64,000 bases of DNA from Atopobium sp. (GCA_022732885.1 JAIJTS010000003.1:44205-108204), one strand, 5' to 3'; shown: positions 9,801 to 26,537, counted from the first letter of the stretch. Notes: generated by a model not told the origin, from the letters alone. Numbers and translations: made by a program.

Positions 9801-10352
9801 GACCAGATGGCCGCGCTTATCAACCTCAAACTCAAGCCATGCACCACGTGCAGGAATGAACTGAGACTTGTGGACCAAAACACCGTTGTCCATCTCTGAC
9901 GAGAAGTACACGCCAGGTGAACGAACGAGCTGAGAAACCACAACACGCTCAGAACCGTTGATGATGAAGGTGCCGCGCTCAGTCATCAGTGGGAAATCGC
10001 CCATGAAGACAAGCTGCTCCTTCATCTCACCAGTCTCTTTATTGACAAAACGGACGTCAACAAAAAGAGGTGCTTGATATGAAATGTCTTTTGCACGACA
10101 CTCAGCCATTGAATTGGCAGGGTCGCCAAACTGATGGTCACCAAAGGTGACCTGCATGGTTCCAGCGCTGTTCTCAATTGGCGAGAACTCAGCGAAGGAC
10201 TCTGCAAGGCCCTCTCCCATAAAGCGCTCAAATGATTCCTTCTGTACAGAAATCAGATTTGGCAGCTCCATAGCTGCGGGAATCTTACTGAACGTCCTGC
10301 GTCCAGTATGCGCCTGAGGCGTGGTGAGGGAAGTCTTTTTAGCGGTAGACAC
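6837..10352 (-). CDS. rpoB: DNA-directed RNA polymerase subunit beta
   Basis: Canonical beta-subunit sequence throughout. ORF reaches 10397 on a TTG. A GTG at 10352 is preceded by GAAGGAGGA at 7-nt spacing and is the more likely start (about 1171 aa). Confidence 0.95.
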
Positions 10353-10624
10353 CAGGTTGTCCTCCTTCAAAAGGGTGGAAGGTGGCAATTGTCGCAACCT
10401 AGTAATTTAGTCAAGATTTTAATTTGCGTCAACATAAAAACACTTGATTTTTTAAGACGTTTTGACTATATTATCGCGTTTATGTTTTTCAACTGCACAA
10501 ACGTTATGCTGCAGGTAAATCCTTAAATAGCTTGTCTTTTTTATATGTGAAGATTTTATGAAGAAGTCCTATGAAGGCGGAAATCGCTTTCGGTGAGCAG
10601 CTCTCCCCCTGCTGTCTTGCTTTA

Positions 10625-10790
10625 CACGGCGCTCCATGCGCTCCGAGCGCACGGGTTTCTCGCCAGGTGCAGGTACGAGCGCGGCTGCGAGCGCACGGGT
10701 TTCTCGCCACACGCACCAACCTTTTCCTGCGTGCGCAGCTGCGAGCGCGCGGGTTTCTCGCCACACGCGCTAGCCTTTTGCTGCGTGCGC
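10625..10790. repeat. Tandem ~54-bp direct repeats (2.5 copies) each carrying GGGTTTCTCGCCA
   Basis: Units gctgcgagcgcRcgggtttctcgccacacgcNNNNNccttttNctgcgtgcg. Exact 13-mer at 10653, 10696, 10750. The four overlapping ORFs called here on both strands are repeat artefacts. Confidence 0.7.
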
Positions 10791-10819
10791 CTAAAAAGTG
10801 CAAAGAATCTGTATTTGAG

Positions 10820-10906
10820 CCACCGAATCTTTTACAAAATCAGGCAAATCCACAGAATCTTTGATACTTTTAGGCAAAATCCACCGATTCTTTTAAGAAA
10901 TCAGGC
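10820..10906. repeat. Three imperfect ~30-bp direct repeats (ccacMgaatcttt..aaatcaggc)
   Basis: Units at 10820-10845, 10846-10875 and 10876-10906, read directly from sequence. Confidence 0.6.
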
Positions 10907-11005
10907 GCGAGAAGAACTAGGACAAGTCATCCTGAATTCACGAGCAGCACACCGGATTTATGAGCCTGAAATGCACACCAAGTCTGAGCAAAAGTACTCA
11001 GATAA

Positions 11006-11065
11006 GGCGAGAAAAACAGGCAAATCACTCAGACATGGCGAGAAAATCCGGCAAATCGCTCAGAC
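11006..11065. repeat. Two ~30-bp direct repeats (ggcgagaaaaNcNggcaaatcRctcagac)
   Basis: Adjacent copies at 11006-11034 and 11035-11065. They contain GGCGAGAAA, the reverse complement of the TTTCTCGCC core. Confidence 0.6.
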
Positions 11066-11108
11066 TTGATGTACTTTTCAGGCTACAACAAAGCCTTTCT
11101 CGCCAGGC

Positions 11109-11143
11109 AAACAAAAAAGAGGCCAGACTAAAGTCTGACCTCT
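11109..11143 (-). terminator. Rho-independent terminator after rplL
   Basis: Minus-strand hairpin gaggtcagac-ttta-gtctggcctc (one G:U pair) followed by a UUUUUUG run. Lies 25 nt downstream of the rplL stop. Confidence 0.55.
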
Positions 11144-11166
11144 TCAGTAAGCTATTTAGGAAGGAC

Positions 11167-11547
11167 TTACTTAAGGGTGACGGTAGCGCCAGCCTCCTCG
11201 AGCTGAGCCTTAGCAGCCTCAGCGTCCTCCTTCTTTGCGCCCTCGAGGACAGCCTTAGGAGCACCCTCGACGACCTCCTTTGCCTCCTTGAGGCCAAGGT
11301 TGGTAAGAGCACGGACAACCTTGATGACGCCGATCTTGTTGTCGCCGAAGCCCTCGAGGATAACGTCAAAGTTGGACTTCTCCTCTGCCTCCTCAGCAGC
11401 GCCACCAGCTACAGGAGCAGCAGCAACAGCTACAGGAGCAGCAGCGGAAACGCCGAAGACGTCCTCAAGCTCGTGAACGAGCTCAGAAAGCTCGAGTGCT
11501 GGCATCTCTTTAAGGGCCTCAATGATCTCATCTTTAGTGACAGCCAT
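11167..11547 (-). CDS. rplL: 50S ribosomal protein L7/L12
   Basis: 126 aa. [38 protein letters not shown], Ala/Pro hinge, and C-terminal domain [33 protein letters not shown]. Confidence 0.95.
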
Positions 11548-12201: not shown

Positions 12202-12646
12202 GTAGTACACCTCCTTTATCATGTCTCAGGCACGAGCGCCAACAGGTGCGGCCCTCACATGAAAAGACCCCACTTTGGCAACCAAAGCGGGGTCTGGATG
12301 TACTAATCTCAAGACCACCTCGGCAGGCGGGAATTCCCATTAAGCCTTGGATTCAAGGCGCCGGCTGTCTTTGGCAGCGAACGTGCAACTGCAAGACGTC
12401 TGTCTTGCGTGGGATATTGTGCAGCAAAAAACTATTCAAGTCAAGGTTGAGCGCACAATTTCTTTCTCTTCACAAAAATTTGACGAGAAGAGCGGCTGTG
12501 CTGCTATGTACACGCTACAAGCCGTGCGCGCCGAATGTTCACCGCAAGCCGCATGCGCACCATAAGCAGATCAGCGCGGCAAGAAAAATCCGCTACCTGC
12601 AAGCAGATACCGGATTAAACGTGCTAGGTACTTCTAAGCGATTAGC
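12202..12646 (-). promoter_or_regulatory. Long 5' leader of the rplJL operon (candidate L10 autoregulatory leader)
   Basis: 445 nt with no convincing coding sequence between rplA and rplJ. Position matches known L10(L12)4-binding leaders. Structure not verified. Confidence 0.3.
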
Positions 12647-15019: not shown

Positions 15020-15095
15020 TGGCAGGCCAGGAAGGACTCGAACCCTCAACAAACGGTTTTGGAGACCGCCGCTCTACCATTGGAGCTACTGGCCT
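15020..15095 (-). tRNA. tRNA-Trp (anticodon CCA)
   Basis: Minus strand reads aggccagtagctccaatggtagagcggcggtctCCAaaaccg...ggttcgagtccttcctggcctgcca. Good cloverleaf with encoded CCA. Conserved position upstream of rpmG-secE-nusG. Confidence 0.9.
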
Positions 15096-15113
15096 AGAAC
15101 GAACCCACCAAGC

Positions 15114-15263
15114 CTAGCGGGTCTCGCGATGTACCGTGTGCTTGTGGCACCATGGGCAGTACTTTTTCAACTCCATACGATCTGGGTTGTTGGACTTATT
15201 CTTGTCCGTAGTGTAATTACGACGCTTGCACTCAGTGCAGGCGAGAGTAACGAGTGTACGCAT
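15114..15263 (-). CDS. rpmG: 50S ribosomal protein L33 (zinc-ribbon type)
   Basis: Below the 60-aa ORF-track cutoff. Minus-strand translation: [49 protein letters not shown]. Confidence 0.85.
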
Positions 15264-15387
15264 TGATCCTCCTGAACACGGTCACGAGATGTATTCTCGA
15301 AATGTGACGCGGTTGCTTAGATTAGCACCCAATACCCAGAGATGTCAATACTTTTCTCTGATTACTCTAGGCGTTCACATATTTTTT

Positions 15388-15421
15388 GACAAAAAACCCG
15401 GCGCGCAAAAAGCACGCCGGG
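15388..15421 (-). terminator. Rho-independent terminator after tuf
   Basis: Hairpin cccggcgtgc...gcgcgccggg (9/10 bp) followed on the minus strand by UUUUUUGUC. Lies 24 nt past the tuf stop. Confidence 0.6.
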
Positions 15422-15444
15422 CAACTTAGCAACTTTAAAAGAAG

Positions 15445-16650
15445 TTACTCGATGACGGTGGAAACACGACCATCGCCGACAGTGTGGCCACCCTCGCGGA
15501 TAGCGAACTTCAGACCCTGCTCAAGAGCAATTGGGTGAATGAGCTCGCAGCCAACGGTGATGTGGTCACCAGGCATAGCCATCTCTACCTTGCCACCGTT
15601 TGCATCGGTGAGCTCGTAGATGTCGCCGGTTACGTCAGTTGTACGGAAGTAGAACTGTGGACGGTAACCAGAGAAGAATGGGGTGTGACGGCCGCCCTCT
15701 TCCTTAGTAAGAACGTAAACCTCACCGGTGAACTTCTTGTGTGGAGTAACGGTACCAGGCTTGCAGAGAACCTGACCGCGCTCGATGTCCTCGCGCTTAA
15801 CGCCACGAAGAAGAATACCAACGTTGTCGCCAGCCTCGCAGAAGTCCATGGTCTTACGGAACATCTCAATGCCGGTAGCAACAGAGCTCTGGGTTGGCTT
15901 AATACCAACGATCTCGACTGGATCGTTGAGCTTGAGCTCACCACGCTCAACACGGCCGGTAGCAACGGTACCACGACCAGAAATGGTCATGACGTCCTCG
16001 ATTGCCATCAGGAATGGCTTCTCGTTGTCACGAGCTGGTGTTGGGATGTAGGAGTCAACAGTGTGCATGAGCTCACGGATGGACTCAACCCACTTCTCCT
16101 CGCCGTTAAGAGCGCCGAGAGCGGAACCACGGATGATTGGAAGGTCATCACCTGGGAAGTCGTACTCGGAGAGAAGGTCACGGGTCTCCATCTCGACGAG
16201 GTCGATGAGCTCGTCATCGTCGACCATATCGCACTTGTTCAGGAAGACAACGATGTAAGGAACGCCGACCTGACGTGCAAGAAGAATGTGCTCACGAGTC
16301 TGAGCCATAGGACCGTCGGTTGCAGCAATAACGAGGATTGCGCCGTCCATCTGAGCTGCACCAGAAATCATGTTCTTGATGTAGTCTGCGTGGCCAGGGC
16401 AGTCGACGTGAGCATAGTGGCGCTCCCAAGTCTCGTACTCAACGTGAGCAACGGAAATGGTAATACCACGCTGACGCTCCTCTGGAGCCTTATCGATGTT
16501 CTCGAAGGCGGTATAGTCTGCCTTGCAGCCCTCGGTCTCAGAGAGAACCTTGGTGATTGCTGCGGTAAGGGTAGTCTTACCGTGGTCGACGTGACCAATA
16601 GTACCGATGTTTACATGTGGCTTTGTGCGGTCAAACTTTTCCTTGGCCAT
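15445..16650 (-). CDS. tuf: Elongation factor Tu
   Basis: [28 protein letters not shown]... ATG at 16650 is preceded by GAAGGAGGA; the ORF-track start at 16656 is TTG. Confidence 0.97.
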
Positions 16651-16757
16651 TGCCAATCCTCCTTCTGGAACTAACCCTCGGGCTAGACCGTGGTGAAAAA
16701 ACGTCTGTTTATACTCAACGGCGCAAATGTCTTAGACATGTACGCCGCAAAGAGTCT

Positions 16758-16833
16758 GGTACCGGCGACTGGATTCGAACCAGTGACGTCACGGGTATGA
16801 GCCGTGTGCTCTAACCAGCTGAGCTACGCCGGC
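16758..16833 (-). tRNA. tRNA-Met (anticodon CAT, elongator-like; Ile2/lysidine type not excluded)
   Basis: gccggcgtagctcagctggttagagcacacggctCATacccgtg...ggttcgaatccagtcgccggtacca, cloverleaf checked by hand. Confidence 0.85.
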
Positions 16834-16852
16834 ATAAATGCCGCTTGAAAAA

Positions 16853-16928
16853 TGGAGCCCGCGACCGGATTTGAACCGGTGACCTCTTCGTTACCAACGA
16901 AGTGCTCTACCTACTGAGCTACACGGGC
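16853..16928 (-). tRNA. tRNA-Thr (anticodon GGT)
   Basis: gcccgtgtagctcagtaggtagagcacttcgttGGTaacgaag...ggttcaaatccggtcgcgggctcca. Confidence 0.88.
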
Positions 16929-16929
16929 G

Positions 16930-17014
16930 TGGTGGGGATACTTGGACTCGAACCAAGGAACCAATAAGGAGCGGATTTACAGTCCGCCGCAGTTGCCGCT
17001 GTGCCATATCCCCA
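16930..17014 (-). tRNA. tRNA-Tyr (anticodon GTA, long variable arm)
   Basis: ggggatatggcacagcggcaactgcggcggactGTAaatccgc + variable arm + ggttcgagtccaagtatccccacca. Confidence 0.85.
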
Positions 17015-17349
17015 AATGCCGTTTTCAAGTACTCTTGAAGCAATTTTGTACGCCGTTTACCTTGCAGTTTAACGTACGCAGAAGGTCTAGTTAAACTTCC
17101 GTATTACCTCGTAAGCGGGAAAATATTACGATTGAATAAAAATCTTGTCAACGTAATACACCCAACCGGGCGTATCTTATCAAATATTTTCCACAATTCC
17201 AACTGATTTTCTCGCCACAACTCCAAGCGGGTTTCTCGCCAAACGAATACTGGCTTTTGTAGTTGCCTATGAGATCCATACGCGATATGTCACGAATGCC
17301 CCAAAATTTGCACGAAAAAAGCCAGGCAATGCCTGGCTGAAAATTCAAG

Positions 17350-17425
<76 letters not shown>

Positions 17426-17516
17426 ATCAAGTGCAGAGGATATTCTATAGACTTTTATGGTTTTGGTCTAGTATCAATTTTTGAGAATTTTACTTCCAAC
17501 ATGCTACGCTTGCAGT

Positions 17517-18095
17517 TTATCTACCCAGAAGCTTCCAGAGTTTCTCGCGCTGTTCTGGAGAAATACGGTCTTCAAGCGTCATGCGTGTACTGACCTGATC
17601 GCGACGCATCTCTTCGACAACGTTATCTGCCTGGGAAATCTCGTGGACAAGCGACGCGCTTGCAATACGCGTGACCTCGCCGGGGCCAAAGCCGGCCGTG
17701 GCGCGAATGTCTCGGTCCGACGTAACCAGAAATACCTTGCGACCAGCCTCTCGTGCGTCCGTGACCAGGCGTTCGATGACGCTATCTGCGGACTCCCCCG
17801 TCTCGGAAAAGACCAGTTGCACACCAGCATGGCTGCGCTCCGGGCGCTCGTCGTTTACGTTTCCCTTGCCATCGAACACAATAACGGACTCGTAGGCGCT
17901 TTGTGCAAACGTGGCAACGTCAGAGATGAGCGCTAAACGGGCGCGATAAAACGGATCGGTATTGAGGTGATAGGCCCTCTCAGCAGCGGTTTCTTGCGCA
18001 GAAGAGCCACGCTCATCCAGCAGCGCCTCATAGCGAGGGGTTGCCAGCATGACGTTATAGCCATCGACCACAAGCAGCGATTTTTTCTGAGCCAT
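17517..18095 (-). CDS. yacP: YacP-like NYN-domain RNase (Rae1/YacP family)
   Basis: 192 aa. N-terminal LLVVDGYNVM PIN/NYN signature. Conserved position after cysS-rlmB as in Bacillus (cysS-yazC-yacO-yacP). Confidence 0.75.
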   Translation of the reverse strand: MAQKKSLLVVDGYNVMLATPRYEALLDERGSSAQETAAERAYHLNTDPFYRARLALISDVATFAQSAYESVIVFDGKGNVNDERPERSHAGVQLVFSETGESADSVIERLVTDAREAGRKVFLVTSDRDIRATAGFGPGEVTRIASASLVHEISQADNVVEEMRRDQVSTRMTLEDRISPEQREKLWKLLGR

Positions 18096-18113: not shown

Positions 18114-19217
18114 TTACGCGTCCTGGGTCCTGCGGAGCCACTCATAGCACATGACCGTTGTTGCCTGAGCAACGTTCAGGGACTCTACCTGGCCAAACTG
18201 AGGAAGCTTGCACGTAAAATCGCACTTCTCGAGCATAAGGCGAGAAATTCCTGAACCTTCAGAGCCCATAACAAGTGCAAGGCGGCCTCCCATAGGAGCC
18301 TCCCACACGGACTGAGTGGCGTGCTCGGTGGAGCCACATGTCCAAAAACCTGCGGCTTTGAGCTCTTCAAGAGCGCGTGGCAGATTAGAAACCTGAGCAA
18401 TTGGCAGGTGAAGCACGGCTCCTGCGGAAGTCTTGTATGCTCCAACGCCAACTCGAGCGGCGCGAGCGTTTGCAATAACGACGCCGGCTGCGCCAACTAC
18501 CTCAGCACTTCTTACGATTGCGCCAAAGTTTCCCTCGTCAGTGACATGATCCAAGACCACAACCAGCGCGTTTTCAGAACCGGCGCGCTGAATAATTTCA
18601 GAGAGGTCGGCGTAGGCAAAAGGCTGTGTACGGACAATAACGCCCTGGTGAGCGCCGTGGCTTGAAAGCGAGTCAAGTACTGGTTTTGCAACACGCTCGA
18701 CAGGAATACCCTCCTGCTCAAGCTGGCGTGCAAGCGCCTCAATCTCCTGGTCCTTCTGTCCGCTTGCGGCTTGTACCAGCGCATTCTTCAAAGGAATGCC
18801 AACAGTCAGCGCCTCAGCTACTGCGCGACGACCCTCGATAAGATCAGTTGCAGGCTTCTTATTGCCGGGACGTCCAGCGGCGGCACCTCGCTGTCCACCA
18901 GCGCCTTTCTGTCCGCGAGTGCCCTGAGCTGCACGTGCGCCTTGTGTGGAGCGTGCGCCCTTTGAGCCCTGGCCATTCTTGGCGCCAAAATAACCGCCCC
19001 AGTCGGCAGTCTTCTTGGAGCCACGACCTGCGCCACCGCGACCAGCAGCGCCACCACGACCTGCAGCGCCACCGCGACCTGCGCCGCTGCGACCTGCAGC
19101 TCCTCCGCGACCTGCGGAGCTACCGCGACCCGAAGCTCCACCGCGGCCAGCAGCGCCACGACCAGCAGCACCCTCGGAACGAGTGTTTTTAGAGGTAGAA
19201 CGCTGATTTCTTGCCAT
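18114..19217 (-). CDS. rlmB: 23S rRNA (guanosine-2'-O)-methyltransferase RlmB (SpoU/TrmH family) with ~125-aa RGG/GAR-rich N-terminal extension
   Basis: C-terminal SPOUT domain (ENALVVVLDHVTDEGNFGAIVRSAEVVGAAGVV...LALVMGSEGSGISRLMLEKCDFTCKLPQFGQVESLNVAQATTVMCYE). N-terminus is (GAAGRGG)n low complexity encoded by 15-18-nt tandem DNA repeats. Confidence 0.85.
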   Translation of the reverse strand: MARNQRSTSKNTRSEGAAGRGAAGRGGASGRGSSAGRGGAAGRSGAGRGGAAGRGGAAGRGGAGRGSKKTADWGGYFGAKNGQGSKGARSTQGARAAQGTRGQKGAGGQRGAAAGRPGNKKPATDLIEGRRAVAEALTVGIPLKNALVQAASGQKDQEIEALARQLEQEGIPVERVAKPVLDSLSSHGAHQGVIVRTQPFAYADLSEIIQRAGSENALVVVLDHVTDEGNFGAIVRSAEVVGAAGVVIANARAARVGVGAYKTSAGAVLHLPIAQVSNLPRALEELKAAGFWTCGSTEHATQSVWEAPMGGRLALVMGSEGSGISRLMLEKCDFTCKLPQFGQVESLNVAQATTVMCYEWLRRTQDA

Positions 19218-19219
19218 AG

Positions 19220-20701
19220 TTAGTCTGCCTTACGCTTAAGTCGAGCGCCAGCGGCGGTATCTTCAATCAAAAGTCCAAGCCCAGCAATGCCGTCTCTAAT
19301 TTGATCGGCAACTGCCCAGTTCTTCTGGGAACGAGCCTCTTGTCGAGCAGCAAGCAAAGCCTCTGCAGCCTCATCGGCTGACGTGCCCTCATAACCTGCT
19401 ACCTGGGATGCAAGCGTTACAAGCTCCTCTGGTAAATCAGAGGTAGACGCTGCCTGAGTCAAATCGATTCCCAAAGCTCCTGTGAGCTCACACAACATAT
19501 CTGATGCACGGAGAACAGGACTTGCGCCAACGTTCTGGCCAACCTCTGCAAGATAGGTATTTGCAGCAGTTACCAGCGCAAAGATAGCAGCAAGTGCTCC
19601 TGCAGTATTGAAATCATCATCCATCTGAGCGTCAAACTCGCTCTGGGCTGTGTTAATTGCCTCAGCAAGCGTACGATCAGCATCGGAAAGTTCATGCTGA
19701 GCAGACGACTGCTTGTAAGCCCAGCGGAGATTTGCAACGCAGGTCTTCATACGCTCAAGCGTGCCAACAGTTCCTTCAAGACGCTCAAATGAGAAATCAA
19801 GTGGTGCACGATAGTGCGTCTGAAGCATCAAAAGTCTTACTGCATCTGCAGGGTACTTGTCCAAAACTTCCTTGAGTGTGTAGAAGTTGCCCAAAGACTT
19901 GGACATCTTCTCGCCATCAACGCGAAGCATTCCAGTATGCATCCAATAATTGGCGAGAGGAGCGTGCCAAGCACAAGATGCCTGCGCGGTCTCGTTCTCA
20001 TGGTGAGGGAATACCAGGTCAGAACCACCACCGTGAATGTCAATTGGAGTGCCCAGGTAGCGATGAATCATGGCGCAGCACTCACTGTGCCAACCTGGAC
20101 GACCTTCTCCCCAAGGGCTTGGCCAGCTAGGCTCACCAGGCTTTGCCGCCTTCCAGAGTGCAAAGTCAAATGGATCGCGTTTCTCGTCATTAACCTCAAC
20201 GCGCTCACCTGCGCGGAGCTGATCAAGGTCTCGGCCAGAAAGCACGCCATAGCCGTGGTCAGAACGAACCGAGAAGTACACGTCGCCCGAAGGCACCGCG
20301 TAAGCGTGACCCTGTTCAATCAAAGATTGAATCATCTGGAGCATGGCTTCAATCTCGTGCGTTGCGCGAGGACGAATATCAGGGTCCAGTATATTGAAAC
20401 GGTGCATCTGCTCGATAAACGCTTGAGAAAACTCTTCAGAAACCTCTTGAGCAGTCCTTCCCTGCTCAATGGCACGCTGAATAATCTTGTCGTCAACGTC
20501 AGTCAGGTTCTGAGCAAAAGTGACCTCATAACCTTTGTGCATCAGATAACGTCGAATAACGTCAAACGAGAGGAAGGTACGGGCGTTTCCGATGTGAATC
20601 TGATCGTAAACCGTAGGACCACACACGTACATGCGGATTTTGCCCTCGTCGATTGGCTTTAACTCTTCTTTTTTATGCGTCTGAGTGTTATAGACAAGCA
20701 T
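19220..20701 (-). CDS. cysS: Cysteine--tRNA ligase
   Basis: HIGN (HIGH-type) motif in MYVCGPTVYDQIHIGNARTF, KMSKS present (GEKMSKSLGN). ORF reaches 20818, but the ATG at 20701 (MLVYNTQTHKKEEL) is the likely start. Confidence 0.93.
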   Translation of the reverse strand: MLVYNTQTHKKEELKPIDEGKIRMYVCGPTVYDQIHIGNARTFLSFDVIRRYLMHKGYEVTFAQNLTDVDDKIIQRAIEQGRTAQEVSEEFSQAFIEQMHRFNILDPDIRPRATHEIEAMLQMIQSLIEQGHAYAVPSGDVYFSVRSDHGYGVLSGRDLDQLRAGERVEVNDEKRDPFDFALWKAAKPGEPSWPSPWGEGRPGWHSECCAMIHRYLGTPIDIHGGGSDLVFPHHENETAQASCAWHAPLANYWMHTGMLRVDGEKMSKSLGNFYTLKEVLDKYPADAVRLLMLQTHYRAPLDFSFERLEGTVGTLERMKTCVANLRWAYKQSSAQHELSDADRTLAEAINTAQSEFDAQMDDDFNTAGALAAIFALVTAANTYLAEVGQNVGASPVLRASDMLCELTGALGIDLTQAASTSDLPEELVTLASQVAGYEGTSADEAAEALLAARQEARSQKNWAVADQIRDGIAGLGLLIEDTAAGARLKRKAD

Positions 20702-21059
20702 ACATACTCCTCGCAACCATTGTGTATTGGTGTAAGTATAAACGGTTTGTGGAAAACCTTTTAGTTCCATACATAGCACAGAAAAAATAAATTGTGTCGT
20801 ATGGGCTTTGTCACACACTCAATTTTTCATTATATCACTCGAATATTTCAAAAATCGAACTTTCGGTGAATTATAATATTTTTAATTTAATATTTTATGT
20901 TTATTATAAGAATATAACCTATTTAACTGGTTGTTTAAAAATATCTACTTTTCTATCTACTACCATTCATCGAAAAAAGGTTTTTCTCTTATTAAAGCTT
21001 CTACAATATTCACAACGTGTTAGCTAGCACAAATTACAACAACTTGTAAGGAGACAGCT

Positions 21060-21152
21060 ATGAAATGGATTATCAAACCATCAAAGCAGGCTACAACAAT
21101 TACCGGCTGTGTTATTTTCATCAACATTTGTGGAGCAAGATTCAACGTTTAA
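21060..21152 (+). CDS. Candidate RiPP precursor peptide (30 aa, 2 Cys): MKWIIKPSKQATTITGCVIFINICGARFNV
   Basis: Below the ORF-track cutoff. AGGAG at 21049-21053 sits 6-7 nt upstream of the ATG. Same strand as the radical-SAM/SPASM gene, 51 nt upstream of it. Low GC like the rest of the island. Confidence 0.5.
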   Translation: MKWIIKPSKQATTITGCVIFINICGARFNV

Positions 21153-21203
21153 TCTAATTGCTGCTGGAGAGATTTTCTCTCCAGCAGCTAGAATCGCAGG
21201 TGA

Positions 21204-22529
21204 ATGGATATGGCTAACAGATATAACTCCTTTAAATTTTCAAAATACAATTCCTTCGTTGAACATGATGATAATTTATATATCTACAATTCATTCACTG
21301 GTGGATTGTTAGAAGTTGACAAAACTTTGAAAGATTATTTCAAAGCAAAAAAATTCGACAATCAATTATCAAGTTCGATTAAAGCGTTATCCGACGAAAC
21401 ATCGGATAATCTACTGTCAGGCGGAATTCTAGTAGACAGCTCTATTGACGAAACAGAAGCACTTATCTGTTCATCCCAAATACATCGATTTGCAACAGAT
21501 AATCTAACTTTAACAATTGCTCCTACCACTTATTGTAACTTTAGGTGTCCTTACTGTTTTGAAAATATTAGAAATCAAACATCAATGTCAGAAGAAACGA
21601 TTGCCCAAATACCTCGATTTATTAAAAGTAACTTCCCTGATTTGAAGGCACTTCAAATTGTTTGGTATGGTGGAGAACCACTACTCGAGTTAGATAAAAT
21701 TTCATTATTGACCAGCAAGCTAATAAATAATGATTATTACTTGCAACCAGCTTCAATAGTAACGAATGGATATCTGCTAAATGAACAAATTGCACACAAA
21801 CTTGTTGACCTAGGTATTAACAACGCTCAAGTCACAATTGACGGTTCAAGAAATGATCATAATTTACGCAGAATTCCAGCGAATGGCTCACCAACTTTTG
21901 ACCGTATACTTAAAAATATTCAGTCTTGTTCTAATTTGCTCAACATTACAATTAGAATCAATGCCGATAAGACTAATGTTAAGCATGCGGATGAGTTATT
22001 GGAAGACCTTGAAAAAGCTGGTTTAAAAGATGTCGTTTCAATAAGTTTATCGCCAGTAACTGATTACACTGAAAAGAATAATGATTTGGGAGTATGTTTT
22101 TCATCTTCCCAATTTGCTGATGAAGAGTACATCTTCTATAAAAAGGCGGTACAAAAAGGATTTGATGTCGTAGGTAGTCTATTGCGTCAAAGGCAAATTT
22201 GTGGAGCAATTTCCTACAACTCTTATGTAATTGACCCTCATGGTGATCTTTATAAATGTTGGGATTCAATAGGAAATATAGATGAGAAAGTGGGAACCAT
22301 CTATGATTCCATACAGCTAAATACCAATCTTTGCAAATGGCTTACATACAATCCGTATAAGAAAAATTGTATTAACTGTAAAGTCCTTCCCATGTGTAAT
22401 GGTGGTTGCCCAAATCAATTCATCCAAACGGGAAGACTTGGGTGTTGTAGTAGTTTTTATAATCTCAACAAAAAACTAGAGTTGATTTCCTATGTGCTTA
22501 ATAATAATGAAGGTGATTCGAATGAGTAA
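21204..22529 (+). CDS. Radical SAM / SPASM-domain peptide-modifying enzyme (sactipeptide/ranthipeptide-maturase-like, anSME superfamily)
   Basis: 441 aa. CNFRCPYC (CxxxCxxC) after a ~115-aa N-terminal extension (YIYNSFTGGLLEVD, RRE-like). WYGGEPLL glycine-rich SAM motif. C-terminal SPASM Cys cluster (CGAISYNSYVIDPHGDLYKCWD...CINCKVLPMCNGGCPNQ). Confidence 0.85.
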   Translation: MDMANRYNSFKFSKYNSFVEHDDNLYIYNSFTGGLLEVDKTLKDYFKAKKFDNQLSSSIKALSDETSDNLLSGGILVDSSIDETEALICSSQIHRFATDNLTLTIAPTTYCNFRCPYCFENIRNQTSMSEETIAQIPRFIKSNFPDLKALQIVWYGGEPLLELDKISLLTSKLINNDYYLQPASIVTNGYLLNEQIAHKLVDLGINNAQVTIDGSRNDHNLRRIPANGSPTFDRILKNIQSCSNLLNITIRINADKTNVKHADELLEDLEKAGLKDVVSISLSPVTDYTEKNNDLGVCFSSSQFADEEYIFYKKAVQKGFDVVGSLLRQRQICGAISYNSYVIDPHGDLYKCWDSIGNIDEKVGTIYDSIQLNTNLCKWLTYNPYKKNCINCKVLPMCNGGCPNQFIQTGRLGCCSSFYNLNKKLELISYVLNNNEGDSNE

Positions 22530-24162
22530 GTTTTTTAACATTATCCGCTACTGTATATCTACCATTCTGGATAAGGGCAGTCTTGCGATTTTTCTCTTTC
22601 TGTCATTCTTTGTCACAGCGCTTATGGTGATCCAACCGCTTCTTGTTGGATTTGTAATTAATCTTTTTATTTCAGGAACAACTTGGAGCGAGATACTTTT
22701 CTATTGCGCCATAGTTGCCGCACTAGGAATCCTCATTGCCGGCTGCTCCTATCTTGCTAAAACACGGTATTGTCAGTTACAGGTTGATTCTGCGTTTACT
22801 ATTGAGCGACAGCTGATTGACAAGATTCAACATGCAGATTCATCGTTTTTCTCGTCATATGATTCTGGTCATTATCGTCAGACAGTAAATAATGATGCTA
22901 ATGACGTTTCGATTTTTATACTTACACAATGTATGAGCTTTGTAACAACTATGGTCTCTGTCTTAGGCACACTGGCAATTATTTTATATCTGAACCCATT
23001 AACCGCTCTTGTAACAGTTGTTCTGTTGTTGGTGAGTTTTATTATCTATAAGCAAATCCAAGCTGCGGCCTATAAAAGATACAGAGAATCCAAAGAACTA
23101 AGATCTCAATATGGATCTATTGAGCTTTCCCAATTCACAGACGTAGATTTTATCAGGCGTCATTCTCTCTTTGAGCGTTTCTTTAATCAGCACTATGCCG
23201 TCAATCAAAAACTTCGTAGTGCCATTCATGAGCAGTACAAACTGGAATTTGGTGTACAGGAATTAAACAATGCTGTAATTGCCGTATTCCAAGCCATTGT
23301 CTTTATTACCTGTGCATATCAAATTTTCCTTGGAGCACTCCAGCCTGGCTATATTGCAACCATTTCAAGCTATTTTGTATCGCTCTTAGGTTCTATTACG
23401 CTTCTTATGGAATTTGGCATGGCTTATCAGAGTATTACGGTAAGTCTTAATCGAATTGAGCAGATTCTTGATTTACCTCAAGAGTCCGTTGGTAACATCA
23501 TTCCATCAGAGAACGTCAATCAAATTACCTGCACAAATGTATCTTTCTCTTATCCGCATACAAATAAAGTACTGATGAACAACTTGTCTTGCAGTTTTGC
23601 AAAAGGAAATATATACGCCATTACCGGTGGAAACGGTACCGGCAAATCAACATTTCTGAAACTCATTAACGGAGAGTGGTCTTCTCACCTATCGGGCACT
23701 ATTACTATTAACGAGGACTTACTAGCTCAAATTAATCAGTATGAACTCCGAAAAAATACTCTTGGATTTACCGAACAAGAGCCAAGCATTGTTGACGATA
23801 CAGTAAGAAATAATCTGACCCTACTCTGCAAAAAGCAACCAACAGATGAAGAGATAATCAACTATATCAAGCTGTTCAATCTGGAAAAATTGCTGCTTGG
23901 AGACGATCAAAATCTTGACGTTCGCCTGGGTGAACGAAGCTCTGCTATCTCTGGTGGAGAAAAGCAAAAGATTGCAATTATCCGCATGATGCTTATGAAT
24001 CCAAGTGTTATGTTGCTTGACGAGCCAACTTCTGCATTAGATCAAAAAAGTGTTGATATCCTTCTTAATCTTCTCAAGAAGGTCAAGCAGGACCACATCA
24101 TACTTCTCATATCTCATGACCCTAAAGTGGTGGAAGCAGCCGACCATATCGTAGAGCTGTAA
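22522..24162 (+). CDS. ABC transporter, fused permease/ATP-binding protein (type I exporter, no C39 peptidase domain)
   Basis: Six N-terminal TM helices, then NBD with Walker A GGNGTGKST, signature LSGGEKQKIAI, Walker B LLDEPTSALD. ATG at 22522 with GAAGGTGA RBS overlaps the rSAM stop by 8 nt. The ORF track gives upstream in-frame starts at 22492 and 22507. Confidence 0.85.
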   Translation: MSKFFNIIRYCISTILDKGSLAIFLFLSFFVTALMVIQPLLVGFVINLFISGTTWSEILFYCAIVAALGILIAGCSYLAKTRYCQLQVDSAFTIERQLIDKIQHADSSFFSSYDSGHYRQTVNNDANDVSIFILTQCMSFVTTMVSVLGTLAIILYLNPLTALVTVVLLLVSFIIYKQIQAAAYKRYRESKELRSQYGSIELSQFTDVDFIRRHSLFERFFNQHYAVNQKLRSAIHEQYKLEFGVQELNNAVIAVFQAIVFITCAYQIFLGALQPGYIATISSYFVSLLGSITLLMEFGMAYQSITVSLNRIEQILDLPQESVGNIIPSENVNQITCTNVSFSYPHTNKVLMNNLSCSFAKGNIYAITGGNGTGKSTFLKLINGEWSSHLSGTITINEDLLAQINQYELRKNTLGFTEQEPSIVDDTVRNNLTLLCKKQPTDEEIINYIKLFNLEKLLLGDDQNLDVRLGERSSAISGGEKQKIAIIRMMLMNPSVMLLDEPTSALDQKSVDILLNLLKKVKQDHIILLISHDPKVVEAADHIVEL

Positions 24163-24163
24163 T

Positions 24164-24658
24164 TTATTGCGCGCTACGTCCCAGCAGAACAACTGCCCAG
24201 GCAGCAATGCCTTCTTGAGTGCCCACAAAACCAAGGCCTTCGGTGGTAGTTGCTTTTACGCCAACTTTGTCTGACGTAACGCCCATGACCTCAGCCATGC
24301 GGTTTCTCATAGCGTCGCGATGAGGGAGCAGCTTAGGTGCTTGAGCTGCAACGGTGCAGTCACAGTCCAGAAGCTCAAAGCCCTCATTACGAACAAGCTG
24401 CATAACATGGGACAGAAGCACCATAGAATCAGCGCCCTCATAAGCAGGGTCTGTATCAGGGAAAAGCTGGCCAATGTCGCCGGCACGCATAGCTCCTAGT
24501 AGGGCGTCCATGAGTGCATGAGCCAAAACGTCAGCATCGGAATGGCCGAGAAGACCTTTGGTGTGCTCAATTTTAATACCACCTAAGATAAGATCTCTGC
24601 CCTCTACCAGGCGATGAACATCGTATCCGTGGCCAATTTTAAGCTCTGGCATACTCAC
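24164..24658 (-). CDS. ispF: 2-C-methyl-D-erythritol 2,4-cyclodiphosphate synthase
   Basis: IGHGYDVHRL...GHSDADVLAHALMDALLGA, canonical IspF motifs. Confidence 0.93.
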   Translation of the reverse strand: MSMPELKIGHGYDVHRLVEGRDLILGGIKIEHTKGLLGHSDADVLAHALMDALLGAMRAGDIGQLFPDTDPAYEGADSMVLLSHVMQLVRNEGFELLDCDCTVAAQAPKLLPHRDAMRNRMAEVMGVTSDKVGVKATTTEGLGFVGTQEGIAAWAVVLLGRSAQ

Positions 24659-25458
24659 TCTACAGCCCCACTTCCGGTTGCGCCTTCTAACAAGCGTCGG
24701 CTGAGCGTGGCTTCAACAATTGCAAGGTCAGACGGGTACGTGACCTTCACGTTTTCTCGTTGCGACTCAACGCACAGCACCGTAAGACTCAGTCGCTCAA
24801 CTAACGACGAATCATCGGTTCCCTGATAGCCCTCCTGACGAGCCACTTCGTGAGCTTCAAGCAGCGTGCGCGTCTTAAACACCTGAGGGGTCTGGGCAGC
24901 CCAGAAAGTAGAGCGATCAGGTGTATCTACGATGGTTGTGCCGTCTACGCGCTTTAGCGTATCAGTTGCACGGTGAGCCAAAATTGCTCCCGCAATCTTA
25001 GGAGAGTTGCGGACCGTACCAATGACCTGCTCAATGGTTTCTACCTCAATGAGCGGACGAACCGCATCATGAACAGAAACAAAATCATATCCGACAGGCA
25101 CTACCTGAAGCGCGTTGTAAACCGATTCCTGTCTGGTAGCACCAGATGTTGCAAAGTGAACGGGTTTGTGGAGTACAAGCTTGCCCAAAACACCCTCTTG
25201 AACTGCAGCGCGTTTCTCGTCAGAGCAAGCAATTACAATGTGAGCCACGCTGGGCGCGTGATCAAACGCAAGGATTGACCAGCTCATCAGCGGAAGTCCG
25301 CAAACAGTAATAAACTGCTTGCCGTCAGGATATCCAAAGCGCTCGCCAATGCCGCCGGCCACAATGACGGCAACGGTATCGGCTTTTGCTCCATGTGTTG
25401 AAAGGCGAGAAGGACGTGGCTTTGACACAACCTTTGCACAAGTGCTGCTTGCAGCCAT
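24655..25458 (-). CDS. ispD: 2-C-methyl-D-erythritol 4-phosphate cytidylyltransferase
   Basis: VAVIVAGGIGERFG nucleotidyltransferase motif. Overlaps ispF by 4 nt. After ~35 N-terminal residues of uncertain true start. Confidence 0.88.
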   Translation of the reverse strand: MAASSTCAKVVSKPRPSRLSTHGAKADTVAVIVAGGIGERFGYPDGKQFITVCGLPLMSWSILAFDHAPSVAHIVIACSDEKRAAVQEGVLGKLVLHKPVHFATSGATRQESVYNALQVVPVGYDFVSVHDAVRPLIEVETIEQVIGTVRNSPKIAGAILAHRATDTLKRVDGTTIVDTPDRSTFWAAQTPQVFKTRTLLEAHEVARQEGYQGTDDSSLVERLSLTVLCVESQRENVKVTYPSDLAIVEATLSRRLLEGATGSGAVE

Positions 25459-26537
25459 TATTCTGACTTACCCCACATTCTGCGGAGACTGTTAGCAAGT
25501 GCACCGGGGTTCTCGACACCCAGGGATTTGAGGCTAGACGTATCGTTTTCTGCAACGTGAAGCAGCTGCTGCAGGTTATCGTAGGCGTCAACAATTCTGG
25601 CTGCAATTTCATCGTTGACTACGTGAACGCGAGAAAGCGTGCGCAGGCCCAGAGGCTCCATGGACGCATCTTCTCCGCGACCATCGGAGTAGCCAAGAAT
25701 CTGGCCAACACTCTCTGCGGAACGGAGCTCAGTGTTGGCTGTCTCATGGAAGCGGCGGCGAATAGCGCGTGCCTCCTCAGCAGAAGAATCTACAGCGTAA
25801 TCGCGAATCATCAGGTTATAGGCCTCGTCGATGCCGCCCAAATATTCCTCGCGCTGCATAGCAGTGGTTTTACCCTCGCTGCCCAACTCCAAAAGGCAGG
25901 CATCCAGCTGATCAACGGCACTAAACAGAACCTCAAAGAGATAGAAAATACCAGCTACATCGCCCAGAGTGACGTAGTTATCAAGCTCAAGCGCGGTCAG
26001 GCGCAGAAGCGCACGATCAAGCTGCTGACGTGTATTCTGCATAGCAACCGAAAGCTGATTGACGGTAGACATAATGGCTGGTACAGACTTCAGCGGAATA
26101 ACGTGACCATCAACGTAGACGGTAATCAACGAACGGCGAGAAGACACTGCAATCACAATTGACTTGGTGAGCAAGCTCATACGAGCTGCAGTACGATGGC
26201 GAGTGCCTGTTTCTGCAGTTGGAAGCGTTGCGTCAGGATTAAGGTGGAAGTTGGCACGTAAAATTCTGGTGAGATCTTTATCTACCACCACGGCGCCATC
26301 CATTTTGCAGAGCTCAAACAGGCGGTTTGCGGTAAAGGAAACATCAAGTTTAAAACCGTCTCCACCTGCAGCAAGAACGTTTTCTGTATCCCCTACACAA
26401 ATGAGGGCACCAAGACGACCAGCAATAATCATATCCAGAGCAACGCGGAGCGCTGTTCCTGGAGCAGTCATTTTCAGAGCTGAAGCAATACGGTCCCCGT
26501 CTTCTAATGCGTTTGGATCAAGTTGCGTTGGCTCCAT
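25458..26537 (-). CDS. disA: DNA integrity scanning protein DisA (diadenylate cyclase)
   Basis: DAC domain motifs MDGAVVVDKDL and GTRHRTAARMS. ~359 aa. Upstream of ispD as in Firmicutes/Actinobacteria. Confidence 0.88.
   Translation of the reverse strand: MEPTQLDPNALEDGDRIASALKMTAPGTALRVALDMIIAGRLGALICVGDTENVLAAGGDGFKLDVSFTANRLFELCKMDGAVVVDKDLTRILRANFHLNPDATLPTAETGTRHRTAARMSLLTKSIVIAVSSRRSLITVYVDGHVIPLKSVPAIMSTVNQLSVAMQNTRQQLDRALLRLTALELDNYVTLGDVAGIFYLFEVLFSAVDQLDACLLELGSEGKTTAMQREEYLGGIDEAYNLMIRDYAVDSSAEEARAIRRRFHETANTELRSAESVGQILGYSDGRGEDASMEPLGLRTLSRVHVVNDEIAARIVDAYDNLQQLLHVAENDTSSLKSLGVENPGALANSLRRMWGKSE

Follow-up and report, generated by a model that had tools for sequence, protein, structure and literature searches.

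The closest described relatives of the locus analyzed here are the ranthipeptide (SCIFF) systems CteB-thermocellin and PapB-freyrasin and the catalogued NCBIfam Clo7bot family of precursors and maturases (TIGR04333/TIGR04334). The locus lies in a 64,000-nucleotide stretch of DNA from Atopobium sp. (GCA_022732885.1, JAIJTS010000003.1:44205-108204), here called the window, whose source is a human-associated Lancefieldella (formerly Atopobium); all positions are counted from the first letter of the window unless a contig is named. Between the core genes cysS and ispF, it encodes a 30-residue peptide with two cysteines, a radical S-adenosylmethionine (SAM)/SPASM enzyme, and an ATP-binding cassette (ABC) exporter. 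With a probability of roughly 70%, we consider this a minimal Clo7bot-like operon for a peptide that is synthesized ribosomally and modified post-translationally (RiPP), from which we infer a thioether-cross-linked, exported, bacteriocin-like product.

A first-pass annotation of this DNA had suggested that the locus may represent an undescribed RiPP class. However, the leader and the enzyme are distantly related to the catalogued Clo7bot families, and the locus is best placed as a distant, minimal actinobacterial relative of them. As in Clo7bot loci, the leader opens with the same motif (MKWIIKP here and MKFIKKP in Paraclostridium), ~14-18 residues precede a Cys-containing core, and the peptides are encoded on the strand of the enzyme, usually upstream. 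Unlike in those loci, both window proteins score under the curated cut-offs (270 vs 600 bits for the enzyme and 12.4 vs 31 bits for the peptide), the host is an actinobacterium (Coriobacteriia), and the locus has a single precursor of 30 residues and 2 Cys, compared with 4-9 Cys and as many as nine tandem precursor genes in Clo7bot loci. In the literature, we found no experimental chemistry for Clo7bot, TIGR04333, TIGR04334, TIGR04463, or NF038107 (CefB), and nothing specific that links radical SAM enzymes, sactipeptides, or ranthipeptides to Collinsella, Lancefieldella, or Atopobium. The FlmE/OhkG enzymes were dropped as a lead to the chemistry: they belong to Bacteroidota clusters with peptide arginases and DD(I/V)LF-type precursors, which differ from the precursor here, and the radical SAM enzymes are uncharacterized in the 2025 paper that reports these clusters (PMC12703449).

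With the CteB and PapB systems, the locus shares a radical SAM/SPASM enzyme that has an N terminus predicted to resemble a RiPP recognition element (RRE) and two auxiliary-cluster Cys motifs, as well as a substrate that is a short Cys-containing ribosomal peptide. It differs in that the enzyme is ~20% identical to CteB, the SCIFF maturase model TIGR03974 is matched at 79 bits against a cut-off of 425, the peptide has 2 Cys in 30 residues vs six in ~45 in SCIFF peptides, and the Cys-X3-Asp repeats of the PapB substrate are absent. SCIFF loci usually have no dedicated exporter, whereas here the exporter is translationally coupled. Nor is this exporter a C39-peptidase (PCAT) transporter, as PF03412 and a double-glycine substrate leader are both lacking.

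Clusters in Collinsella, Olsenella, and Blautia (for example, L010, L027, L048, and L109) resemble the locus in having enzymes 39-44% identical to that of the window and an exporter without a C39 domain that overlaps or follows the enzyme gene. Their leaders read MDWINEP, MEWITEP, MSWIVKP, and MKWINKA, and one core shares F/I-C-G-A-R with the window peptide. Unlike the window locus, most of them also encode an ABC ATPase and other proteins, placed after the precursors and before the enzyme; the Blautia cluster alone among them has a match to the ABC-2 permease Pfam model, and it carries a histidine kinase gene after the exporter, while a helix-turn-helix regulator lies upstream in L108 and L109. 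The window locus has none of these additions, and its peptide has 2 Cys vs 4-7 Cys in cores of 35-54 residues; it is a stripped-down version of the related clusters. Genes for a phage-type integrase, a SIR2-STALD protein, and a TIR-domain protein are found just downstream of the homologous cluster in L109 (Collinsella-type, 8088-11258 of that contig); they resemble defense genes, which suggests a mobile or defense-island context in Collinsella.

A genuine precursor with a leader shared across phyla

The three genes of the locus are as follows.

21060-21152, + strand: precursor peptide gene, 30 residues, MKWIIKPSKQATTITGCVIFINICGARFNV; open reading frame (ORF) and ribosome-binding site, conserved in three alleles
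21210-22529, + strand: radical SAM/SPASM peptide maturase, 439 residues, PF04055; an alternative start at 21204 would give 441 residues
22522-24162, + strand: ABC half-transporter, 546 residues, six-helix membrane domain (PF00664) and ATPase (PF00005)

We regard the 30-residue ORF as a genuine precursor because its length, frame, Cys, ribosome-binding site, and a downstream hairpin are kept among alleles and because its leader is common to 50 peptides. The peptide has a leader of approximately MKWIIKPSKQ..., followed by a core with C17 and C24 (...TTITGCVIFINICGARFNV). In the three Lancefieldella alleles (A, which is that of the window, B, and C), it always has 30 residues and both Cys and keeps the tail N/D-I-C-G-x-R-x-N-V; the other invariant or near-invariant core positions are T12, T13, N/D22, I23, G25, R27, N29, and V30. 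On the metagenomic contig L001, the allele-C peptide is MKWIVKPTKQVTTLGYCGIRIDICGARHNV, again 30 residues and in the same gene order as in the window. Alleles A and C share the reading frame, the two Cys, the hairpin, and the ribosome-binding site, and several of their codons differ synonymously (11.5 synonymous differences; ratio of nonsynonymous to synonymous divergence, dN/dS, 0.20 overall). The description of a short precursor with two Cys and no Gly-Gly leader in the first-pass annotation is borne out in all three alleles, none of which contains Gly-Gly, and related loci retain the ORF alongside the enzyme, with its frame and Cys kept and with synonymous changes. An alternative 30-residue ORF in another frame (21065-21157) was rejected, as it has no conserved motif in relatives.

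We scanned 79 loci with homologous enzymes from species-representative genomes for same-strand short ORFs that start with M-[KEDNQS]-[WFY]-[IV]-x-x-P and continue into a Cys-containing core. Near the homologous enzymes, 50 distinct peptides carry the leader M-[KE]-[WF]-I-x-[KE]-P and such a core. Position 3 is W, F, or Y in 50/50, position 4 is I in 44/50, and position 7 is P in 44/50. The hosts span Coriobacteriia, Clostridia, and other groups and include Collinsella, Olsenella, Blautia, Lachnospiraceae, Peptostreptococcus, Paraclostridium, Halanaerobiales, and Ktedonobacteraceae, among others. Within the 64-kb window, a looser form of the leader pattern matches this ORF and one chance site, and nothing else. 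Cys is the one universally enriched core residue among the 50 family precursors, of which that of the window is the shortest and has the fewest Cys (2, shared with one Peptacetobacter peptide, L067). Against the precursor model TIGR04333 (cut-off 31 bits), the window peptide scores 12.4 bits over residues 1-10 only and the allele-C peptide 20.6 bits, both under the cut-off, and the Paraclostridium relatives score 36.4 and 27.6 bits.

Two further observations concern the peptides. First, a 13-nt exact repeat, ATTTGTGGAGCAA, is found at 21126-21138, where it encodes I-C-G-A of the peptide core (I23-A26), and at 22197-22209, where it encodes the first SPASM Cys of the enzyme (Q-I-C333-G-A). Many family precursors have C-G-A, C-G-K, or C-G-L after a hydrophobic residue. 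By a rough estimate, ~0.1 matches of this type are expected by chance in 3.9 kb, and either coincidence or mimicry could account for the repeat. Second, five tandem precursors with the same leader in a Halanaerobiales metagenome-assembled genome (MAG; L058, 4964-5958) carry E-[IL]-N-G-G before the first Cys, which resembles the classic double-glycine cleavage site and is absent from the Lancefieldella and Collinsella peptides. Leader removal may therefore differ between branches of the family.

The enzyme and the bond it may form

Of the two possible starts of the enzyme, 21210 is the more likely, since it is preceded by AGGTGA at 6 nt, is an ATG, and gives the length called in other contigs; the start at 21204 given earlier may be an alternative. 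The radical SAM domain PF04055 is matched with an E value of 1.8e-18 (67.7 bits, cut-off 29.5). In an alignment with 27 homologs, the CX3CX2C motif (C111-x3-C115-x2-C118) is invariant, as are the seven Cys of the SPASM region (C333...G347-x4-C352, C389-x2-C392-x5-C398-x3-C402, and C414). The SPASM assignment is supported by this Cys spacing and by the fold. Among the NCBIfam models, the highest score is that of the Clo7bot maturase TIGR04334 (270.4 bits, cut-off 600), whose model positions 1-437 (of 440) are matched by residues 11-434 of the enzyme, an end-to-end alignment. TIGR04463 (262 bits), CefB (221), FlmE/OhkG (190), the geopeptide maturase (164), and PapB (124) follow, then the SCIFF maturase TIGR03974 (79, cut-off 425) and the anaerobic sulfatase maturase (73); every one of these matches is below its curated cut-off. 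The ranthipeptide synthase PapB is the highest among the experimentally characterized maturases listed. The best sequence match in the PDB is CteB (5WGG, E 1.9e-19).

An AlphaFold2 model of the enzyme (pLDDT 86, pTM 0.86) has a strand-then-helix domain at residues ~10-95 that precedes the barrel (strands 10-12, 16-21, 24-29, and 35-38; helices 40-48, 57-61, and 64-72; pLDDT 57-92). In a Foldseek search, this model matched CteB best (5WHY/5WGG, TM score 0.67-0.70) over 445-461 columns, which is the full length, followed by TigE and anSME. The anSME alignments cover ~375-380 columns and are thus shorter by about the length of the N-terminal domain. The model suggests that this domain is RRE-like. 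By these matches, the enzyme is a peptide maturase and a distant relative, not an equivalog, of TIGR04334. The earlier assignment of an RRE-like extension and a SPASM cluster is supported: the PF04055 match is present and peptide maturases rank first, SPASM is recognized by Cys spacing and fold, and the RRE-like domain is predicted from its fold likeness to CteB, but neither the Pfam SPASM model nor the SCIFF cut-off is reached.

It is scarcely credible that the small ORF is spurious and that the enzyme is an anSME-, PqqE-, or cofactor-type maturase for a protein encoded elsewhere. The anaerobic sulfatase maturase family and anSME structures are indeed among the weaker matches. However, the ORF, its ribosome-binding site, and its Cys are conserved across alleles and the leader motif across phyla, and neither sulfatase nor cofactor genes are nearby in any locus for which we inspected the flanking genes; the homologs of the enzyme instead adjoin small Cys peptides and ABC exporters. 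In addition, the N-terminal domain aligns with that of CteB, whereas anSME has no such domain. We rejected the anSME or cofactor-maturase assignment on the gene neighborhood and this domain.

As to the bond formed, a thioether is favored because Cys is universally enriched in the cores and because the nearest characterized relatives, CteB and PapB, make thioethers. The enzyme might instead install a C-C or C-O cross-link, an epimerization, or a Cys-derived oxidation, in which case the product would belong to a chemically new RiPP class. We consider this doubtful, although it has a real chance of being right: the top-scoring families all have no defined reaction, DynA (C-C and ether links), the cyclophane formers YhhB and AmcB, and anSME are among the SPASM enzymes that score similarly, and identity to CteB is only ~20%. 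Against it, Cys is universally enriched in the cores of 50 precursors, both Cys are invariant in the three Lancefieldella alleles, and the closest characterized relatives by score and fold are thioether formers.

An exporter tied to the enzyme

The exporter had been given a start at 22492. A start at 22522 is indicated instead, since a ribosome-binding site, GAAGGTGA, lies inside the last codons of the enzyme and the products in relatives have 546 residues, both of which contradict 22492. From this start, the exporter overlaps the stop of the enzyme by 8 nt (ATGAGTAA), which confirms the overlap of its ATG with the enzyme stop that had been noted before. The absence of a C39 peptidase likewise holds up: PF03412 has no match in the exporter, which begins directly with the membrane domain. 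The co-occurrence of peptide, radical SAM enzyme, and ABC exporter in other genomes, proposed as a check, was found in the Collinsella, Olsenella, and Blautia clusters, where the enzyme-then-exporter order recurs, with the two genes mostly overlapping or tens of bases apart. The nearest homologs of the exporter outside the genus (33-35% identity) are the partner exporters of homologous enzymes in Collinsella-type clusters.

By this arrangement, the exporter is translationally coupled to the maturase. It most probably belongs to the peptide system, because its ribosome-binding site lies in the codons of the enzyme, the gene order is conserved, and its nearest homologs are partner exporters.

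A variable cassette beside a resident exporter

In related genomes, the cysS-ispF interval was found in four states.

State A: window, L088, L089, L090, L092; peptide A, enzyme A, exporter
State B: L003, L082, L083; near-identical enzyme (synonymous divergence, dS, 0.048), different core MKWIIKPSKQTTTITSCGFFFDICGKRYNV
State C: L001, L002, L100; divergent promoter, peptide, and enzyme, conserved exporter
Null state: L098, L099 (ispF protein named L. parvula by NCBI), L101; exporter alone

Comparison of states A and B shows where change concentrates. Between the window and L003, 12/60 nt differ in the peptide core, against 8/720 in the enzyme, 0/51 in the peptide-enzyme spacer, and 80/1600 in cysS; the excess in the core is significant against the enzyme (Fisher p 1e-9) and against cysS (6e-5). 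The peptide core is thus hypervariable. In the comparison of A with C, the divergence extends over a bounded block: from ~20750 to 22500, the window and L001 are 64-76% identical in nucleotides, compared with 91-95% in cysS, the exporter, ispF, and ispD. The enzyme has a dS of 1.29 (dN/dS 0.13), vs 0.19 for the exporter, 0.41 for ispF, and 0.27 for ispD. At the protein level, the exporter is 96.5% identical between A and the allele-C strains and the enzyme 73%.

In the null genomes, window positions 20772-22508 are replaced by ~165 bp of unrelated AT-rich sequence, so that the peptide and the enzyme are absent. An intact 546-residue exporter is nevertheless still preceded by the final seven enzyme codons and the enzyme stop (GAAGGTGATTTGAATGAGTAA), a remnant that points to deletion of the cassette from a complete operon. 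This exporter is 92% identical to that of the window, with a dS of 0.47-0.51, like the flanks, and a dN/dS of 0.075; between two null genomes, the exporter dN/dS is 0.07. The exporter is therefore under purifying selection even without the cassette.

In the metagenome scan with the enzyme, two close loci were found, both of allele B, and the others were distant (28% identity). Among protein clusters, the exporter cluster at 90% identity (P0241) has 2889 members, and the enzyme clusters have 97 (P0001, allele A) and 39 (P0002, allele C). As a rough hint, these counts, which fragments may inflate, suggest that the exporter-only state is much the commonest in the sampled Lancefieldella.

The variable cassette thus spans ~20772-22508, ~1.7 kb containing the promoter, the peptide, and the enzyme, with the exporter outside it. 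Since the exporter dS equals that of the flanks, its acquisition should be old. We propose that an operon arrived complete at the ispF-cysS junction early in the history of the genus and that the exporter was then inherited vertically, and that the promoter-precursor-enzyme module has since been replaced by divergent alleles, diversified in its core, or deleted, with recent turnover apparently limited to the 1.7-kb cassette. The single 3.3-kb island of the first-pass annotation is accordingly better described as composite, in that only the promoter, peptide, and enzyme are variable and the exporter is a vertically inherited resident.

The same data bear on whether the exporter might be unrelated to the peptide, that is, a resident multidrug or housekeeping ABC transporter upstream of which the cassette was inserted by chance, with the peptide acting intracellularly or leaving by another route. 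Its intactness under purifying selection in genomes without peptide and enzyme, including a 41%-identical copy in Lancefieldella sp. Marseille-Q7238, and a synonymous divergence that follows the flanks and not the cassette would fit such an origin. We nonetheless judge it improbable: the 8-nt overlap places the ribosome-binding site of the exporter in the last codons of the enzyme, the cassette-less genomes keep the last 7 enzyme codons, as expected after deletion from a complete operon, the enzyme-then-exporter order is conserved across the family, and the nearest outside-genus homologs are partners of homologous enzymes. In Marseille-Q7238, which is a more distant species, the exporter lies at the same site, without peptide or enzyme (L107 5001-6647, OX424407.1). 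The cysS of L107, judged by eye, looks far more alike to that of the window than its exporter does, and over a longer time scale, the exporter therefore also seems to turn over or evolve fast.

The genomic setting

The flanking genes of the locus are as follows.

19220-20701, - strand: cysS, left flank, core genome; 97.6% amino acid identity to L. parvula cysS, dS 0.39
24164-24652, - strand: ispF, right flank, core genome; convergent with the exporter

The composition profile gives a G+C fraction of 0.31-0.35 across 20600-22600 and 0.37-0.42 across 22400-24200, compared with 0.50-0.55 in the flanks and 0.477 in the whole 64-kb window, in agreement with the low-GC segment first reported between cysS and ispF. 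Also upheld were the placement of the peptide, enzyme, and exporter on one strand (the three ORFs lie on the + strand between cysS and ispF in the order peptide, 13-bp hairpin, enzyme, exporter), the lack of a dedicated protease or regulator among the genes at the locus, and the interruption of the cysS-ispF neighborhood. In more distant Atopobiaceae, cysS comes directly after ispF (158-bp gap), or one hexapeptide-transferase gene lies in between. The ispF of these outside-genus genomes, which have the empty site, is ~73-74% identical to that of the window, and the window ispF is 93% identical to that of L. parvula. A 98%-identical fragment of the enzyme is present in an oral Atopobium sp. MAG.

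The start of cysS, placed earlier at 20818, is corrected to 20701. At the other border, the stop codons of ispF and the exporter are 1 nt apart and convergent (24160-24166), and no terminator-like structure was detected between the two genes, so the transcripts of the opposite strands probably overlap. With respect to the features of a genomic island, the composition is atypical and an empty site exists in distant Atopobiaceae; the gene tables of the locus contain no integrase, and no flanking direct repeats or att-like sites were found at the borders of the island or the cassette.

Elements around the precursor gene

The following elements surround the precursor gene.

20772-21059, + strand: cassette-specific upstream (putative promoter) region; homology to cassette-less L. 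parvula ends at ~20771
21002-21007, + strand: -10-like TACAAT, within the cassette upstream region
21017-21030, + strand: near-palindrome GTGTTAGCTAGCAC, conserved, the sole copy in the window
21048-21053, + strand: AAGGAG ribosome-binding site of the peptide, 6 nt before the ATG
21160-21188, + strand: perfect 13-bp stem-loop between precursor and maturase, an inverted repeat without a U-tract

Although alleles A and C share only 64% identity in the upstream region, the block CTACA-TATTCA-AACGTGTTAGCTA-CACA and the ribosome-binding site are still conserved. The near-palindrome, ~20 nt upstream of the precursor ribosome-binding site, falls in one of the few blocks conserved between A and C, and in allele C, GTGTTAGCTAGCAC becomes the perfect palindrome GTGTTAGCTAACAC. 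The GTGTTAGCTARCAC palindrome may be a candidate operator, and the promoter and operator roles of the elements in 20772-21059 are putative. In the promoter/terminator scan, no intrinsic terminator was found.

The hairpin at 21160-21188 has a predicted free energy of -29.2 kcal/mol (z -5.1), and 0/200 shuffles fold as well. Its stem is nearly unchanged in allele C, where the closing pair alone differs, in a surrounding cassette that is ~76% identical. It is probably a transcript-stabilizing or attenuating element that sets the ratio of precursor to enzyme.

Proposed pathway and role of the product

We propose the following pathway for the Clo7bot-like operon. The 30-residue precursor would be translated from its strong ribosome-binding site, and the conserved hairpin after its stop would stabilize or partly terminate the transcript, such that precursor exceeds enzyme. 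The RRE-like domain of the enzyme would bind the conserved N-terminal leader, as its fold suggests. With its SAM cluster and two auxiliary clusters, the enzyme would then cross-link C17 and C24 to acceptor carbons in the core, most likely through thioethers of the ranthipeptide or sactipeptide type. Finally, the coupled ABC half-transporter would export the product, with the short leader kept or cut by a housekeeping protease. At the level of the population, the product would serve as a narrow-spectrum bacteriocin-like peptide in strain competition, and the exporter probably also protects its host; such self-protection would explain why the exporter is retained in strains that have lost the cassette.

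A bacteriocin role is favored by the immunity-like gene set of related clusters, which carry an ABC ATPase and, in Blautia, an ABC-2 permease, as in lantibiotic-immunity arrangements, by the hypervariable core and the deeply divergent coexisting alleles, and by purifying selection on the exporter without the cassette, as in immune-only genotypes. Allelic peptide loci are known from the agr specificity groups of staphylococci and from pneumococcal blp and comC. As in these, a hypervariable segment with the peptide and its processing enzyme is bounded by conserved flanks, divergent alleles coexist, and some strains have lost production and keep part of the locus. Unlike in these, the cassette contains no co-varying receptor or immunity gene, and the exporter is retained; the likeness is one of pattern and implies no homology.

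The main rival to the bacteriocin role is that the modified peptide serves as a secreted signal (a "pherotype" or quorum-sensing pheromone), with A, B, and C as specificity groups as in agr or comC. The short product, the hypervariable core with its co-diverging processing enzyme, and the lack of a dedicated immunity gene at the locus would all suit a pheromone, the histidine kinase next to the homologous Blautia cluster could point the same way, and the precursor could be autoregulated through the conserved palindrome upstream of it, acting as an operator. We consider it unlikely, since no kinase, Rgg, or RRNPP receptor that co-varies with the cassette lies in or beside it, a pure signaling system does not predict an exporter kept in cassette-less strains, and related clusters contain the immunity-like ABC ATPase and ABC-2 permease genes.

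Several points weigh against a thioether-bearing, bacteriocin-like product of a Clo7bot-like operon. The enzyme and the peptide are both below the curated family cut-offs, the Pfam SPASM model is not among the enzyme matches at E<=0.1, and the promoter scan found no consensus promoter above chance. The thioether assignment derives from the conservation of Cys and from a resemblance to CteB and PapB that amounts to only 17-20% identity, and in the literature we found, the best-scoring families (Clo7bot, TIGR04463, CefB, and FlmE/OhkG) have no defined reaction. At the locus, there is no immunity gene, receptor, regulator, or protease, which makes antimicrobial and signaling roles inseparable there. 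The retention of the exporter without the cassette could equally mean an unrelated housekeeping role.

Other features of the window

Outside the locus, the cysS, ispF, and ispD of L088 show no differences from those of the window. In disA (25458-26537), the two differ by 45 synonymous changes and 1 nonsynonymous change (dS 0.19), and this divergence in disA alone indicates a recombination tract confined to that gene. Downstream of cysS, a TrmH/SpoU-type RNA methyltransferase gene (18114-19217, - strand) encodes an N-terminal low-complexity repeat rich in Gly, Arg, and Ala (AAGRGG...). The G+C fraction of the repeat region, especially 18800-19200, is up to 0.66; the region is 61-70% identical to L003, and the homologs have 339-367 residues. 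Five tRNA genes (Trp, Met, Thr, Tyr, Thr) lie at 15020-17425 on the - strand, and the alignment with L003 has large indels at ~17200-17600, beside tRNA-Thr. A ribosomal protein L10 leader (Rfam RF00557) is found at 12253-12392 with 44.5 bits, just over the threshold.

Implications

The reading of the locus as a RiPP operon with a precursor, a radical SAM/SPASM maturase, and a coupled exporter is supported by the gene neighborhoods and the conservation of the ORF. This architecture is ordinary for the field; the natural allele series and the two-Cys member make the chemistry readily testable. New here are a swappable promoter-precursor-enzyme cassette beside a fixed exporter and a minimal actinobacterial variant of a chemically uncharacterized family. 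A point of method also follows, namely that a low-GC "island" can combine a long-resident gene with a young swappable module.

In the human microbiome, peptides modified by radical SAM enzymes are a major source of both novel enzyme chemistry and narrow-spectrum antimicrobials. The Clo7bot-like family occurs widely, with 50 distinct precursors, and with one 30-residue two-Cys precursor, one enzyme, and one exporter, the Lancefieldella version is probably its most tractable member for heterologous expression. The alleles, together with the exporter-only strains, offer a natural experiment on exporter immunity and allele-governed antagonism in the mouth and gut.

It is quite unlikely that two further propositions hold jointly, namely that the M-x-W/F-I-x-x-P family makes a new type of cross-link and that A, B, C, and null, with the exporter, form a balanced polymorphism of producers and immune-only strains. 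If they do, no natural substrate would be simpler for elucidating the new cross-link than the Lancefieldella peptide, with its 30 residues and two Cys, and competition between strains of human oral and gut Lancefieldella would be structured by the producer/immune-only polymorphism.

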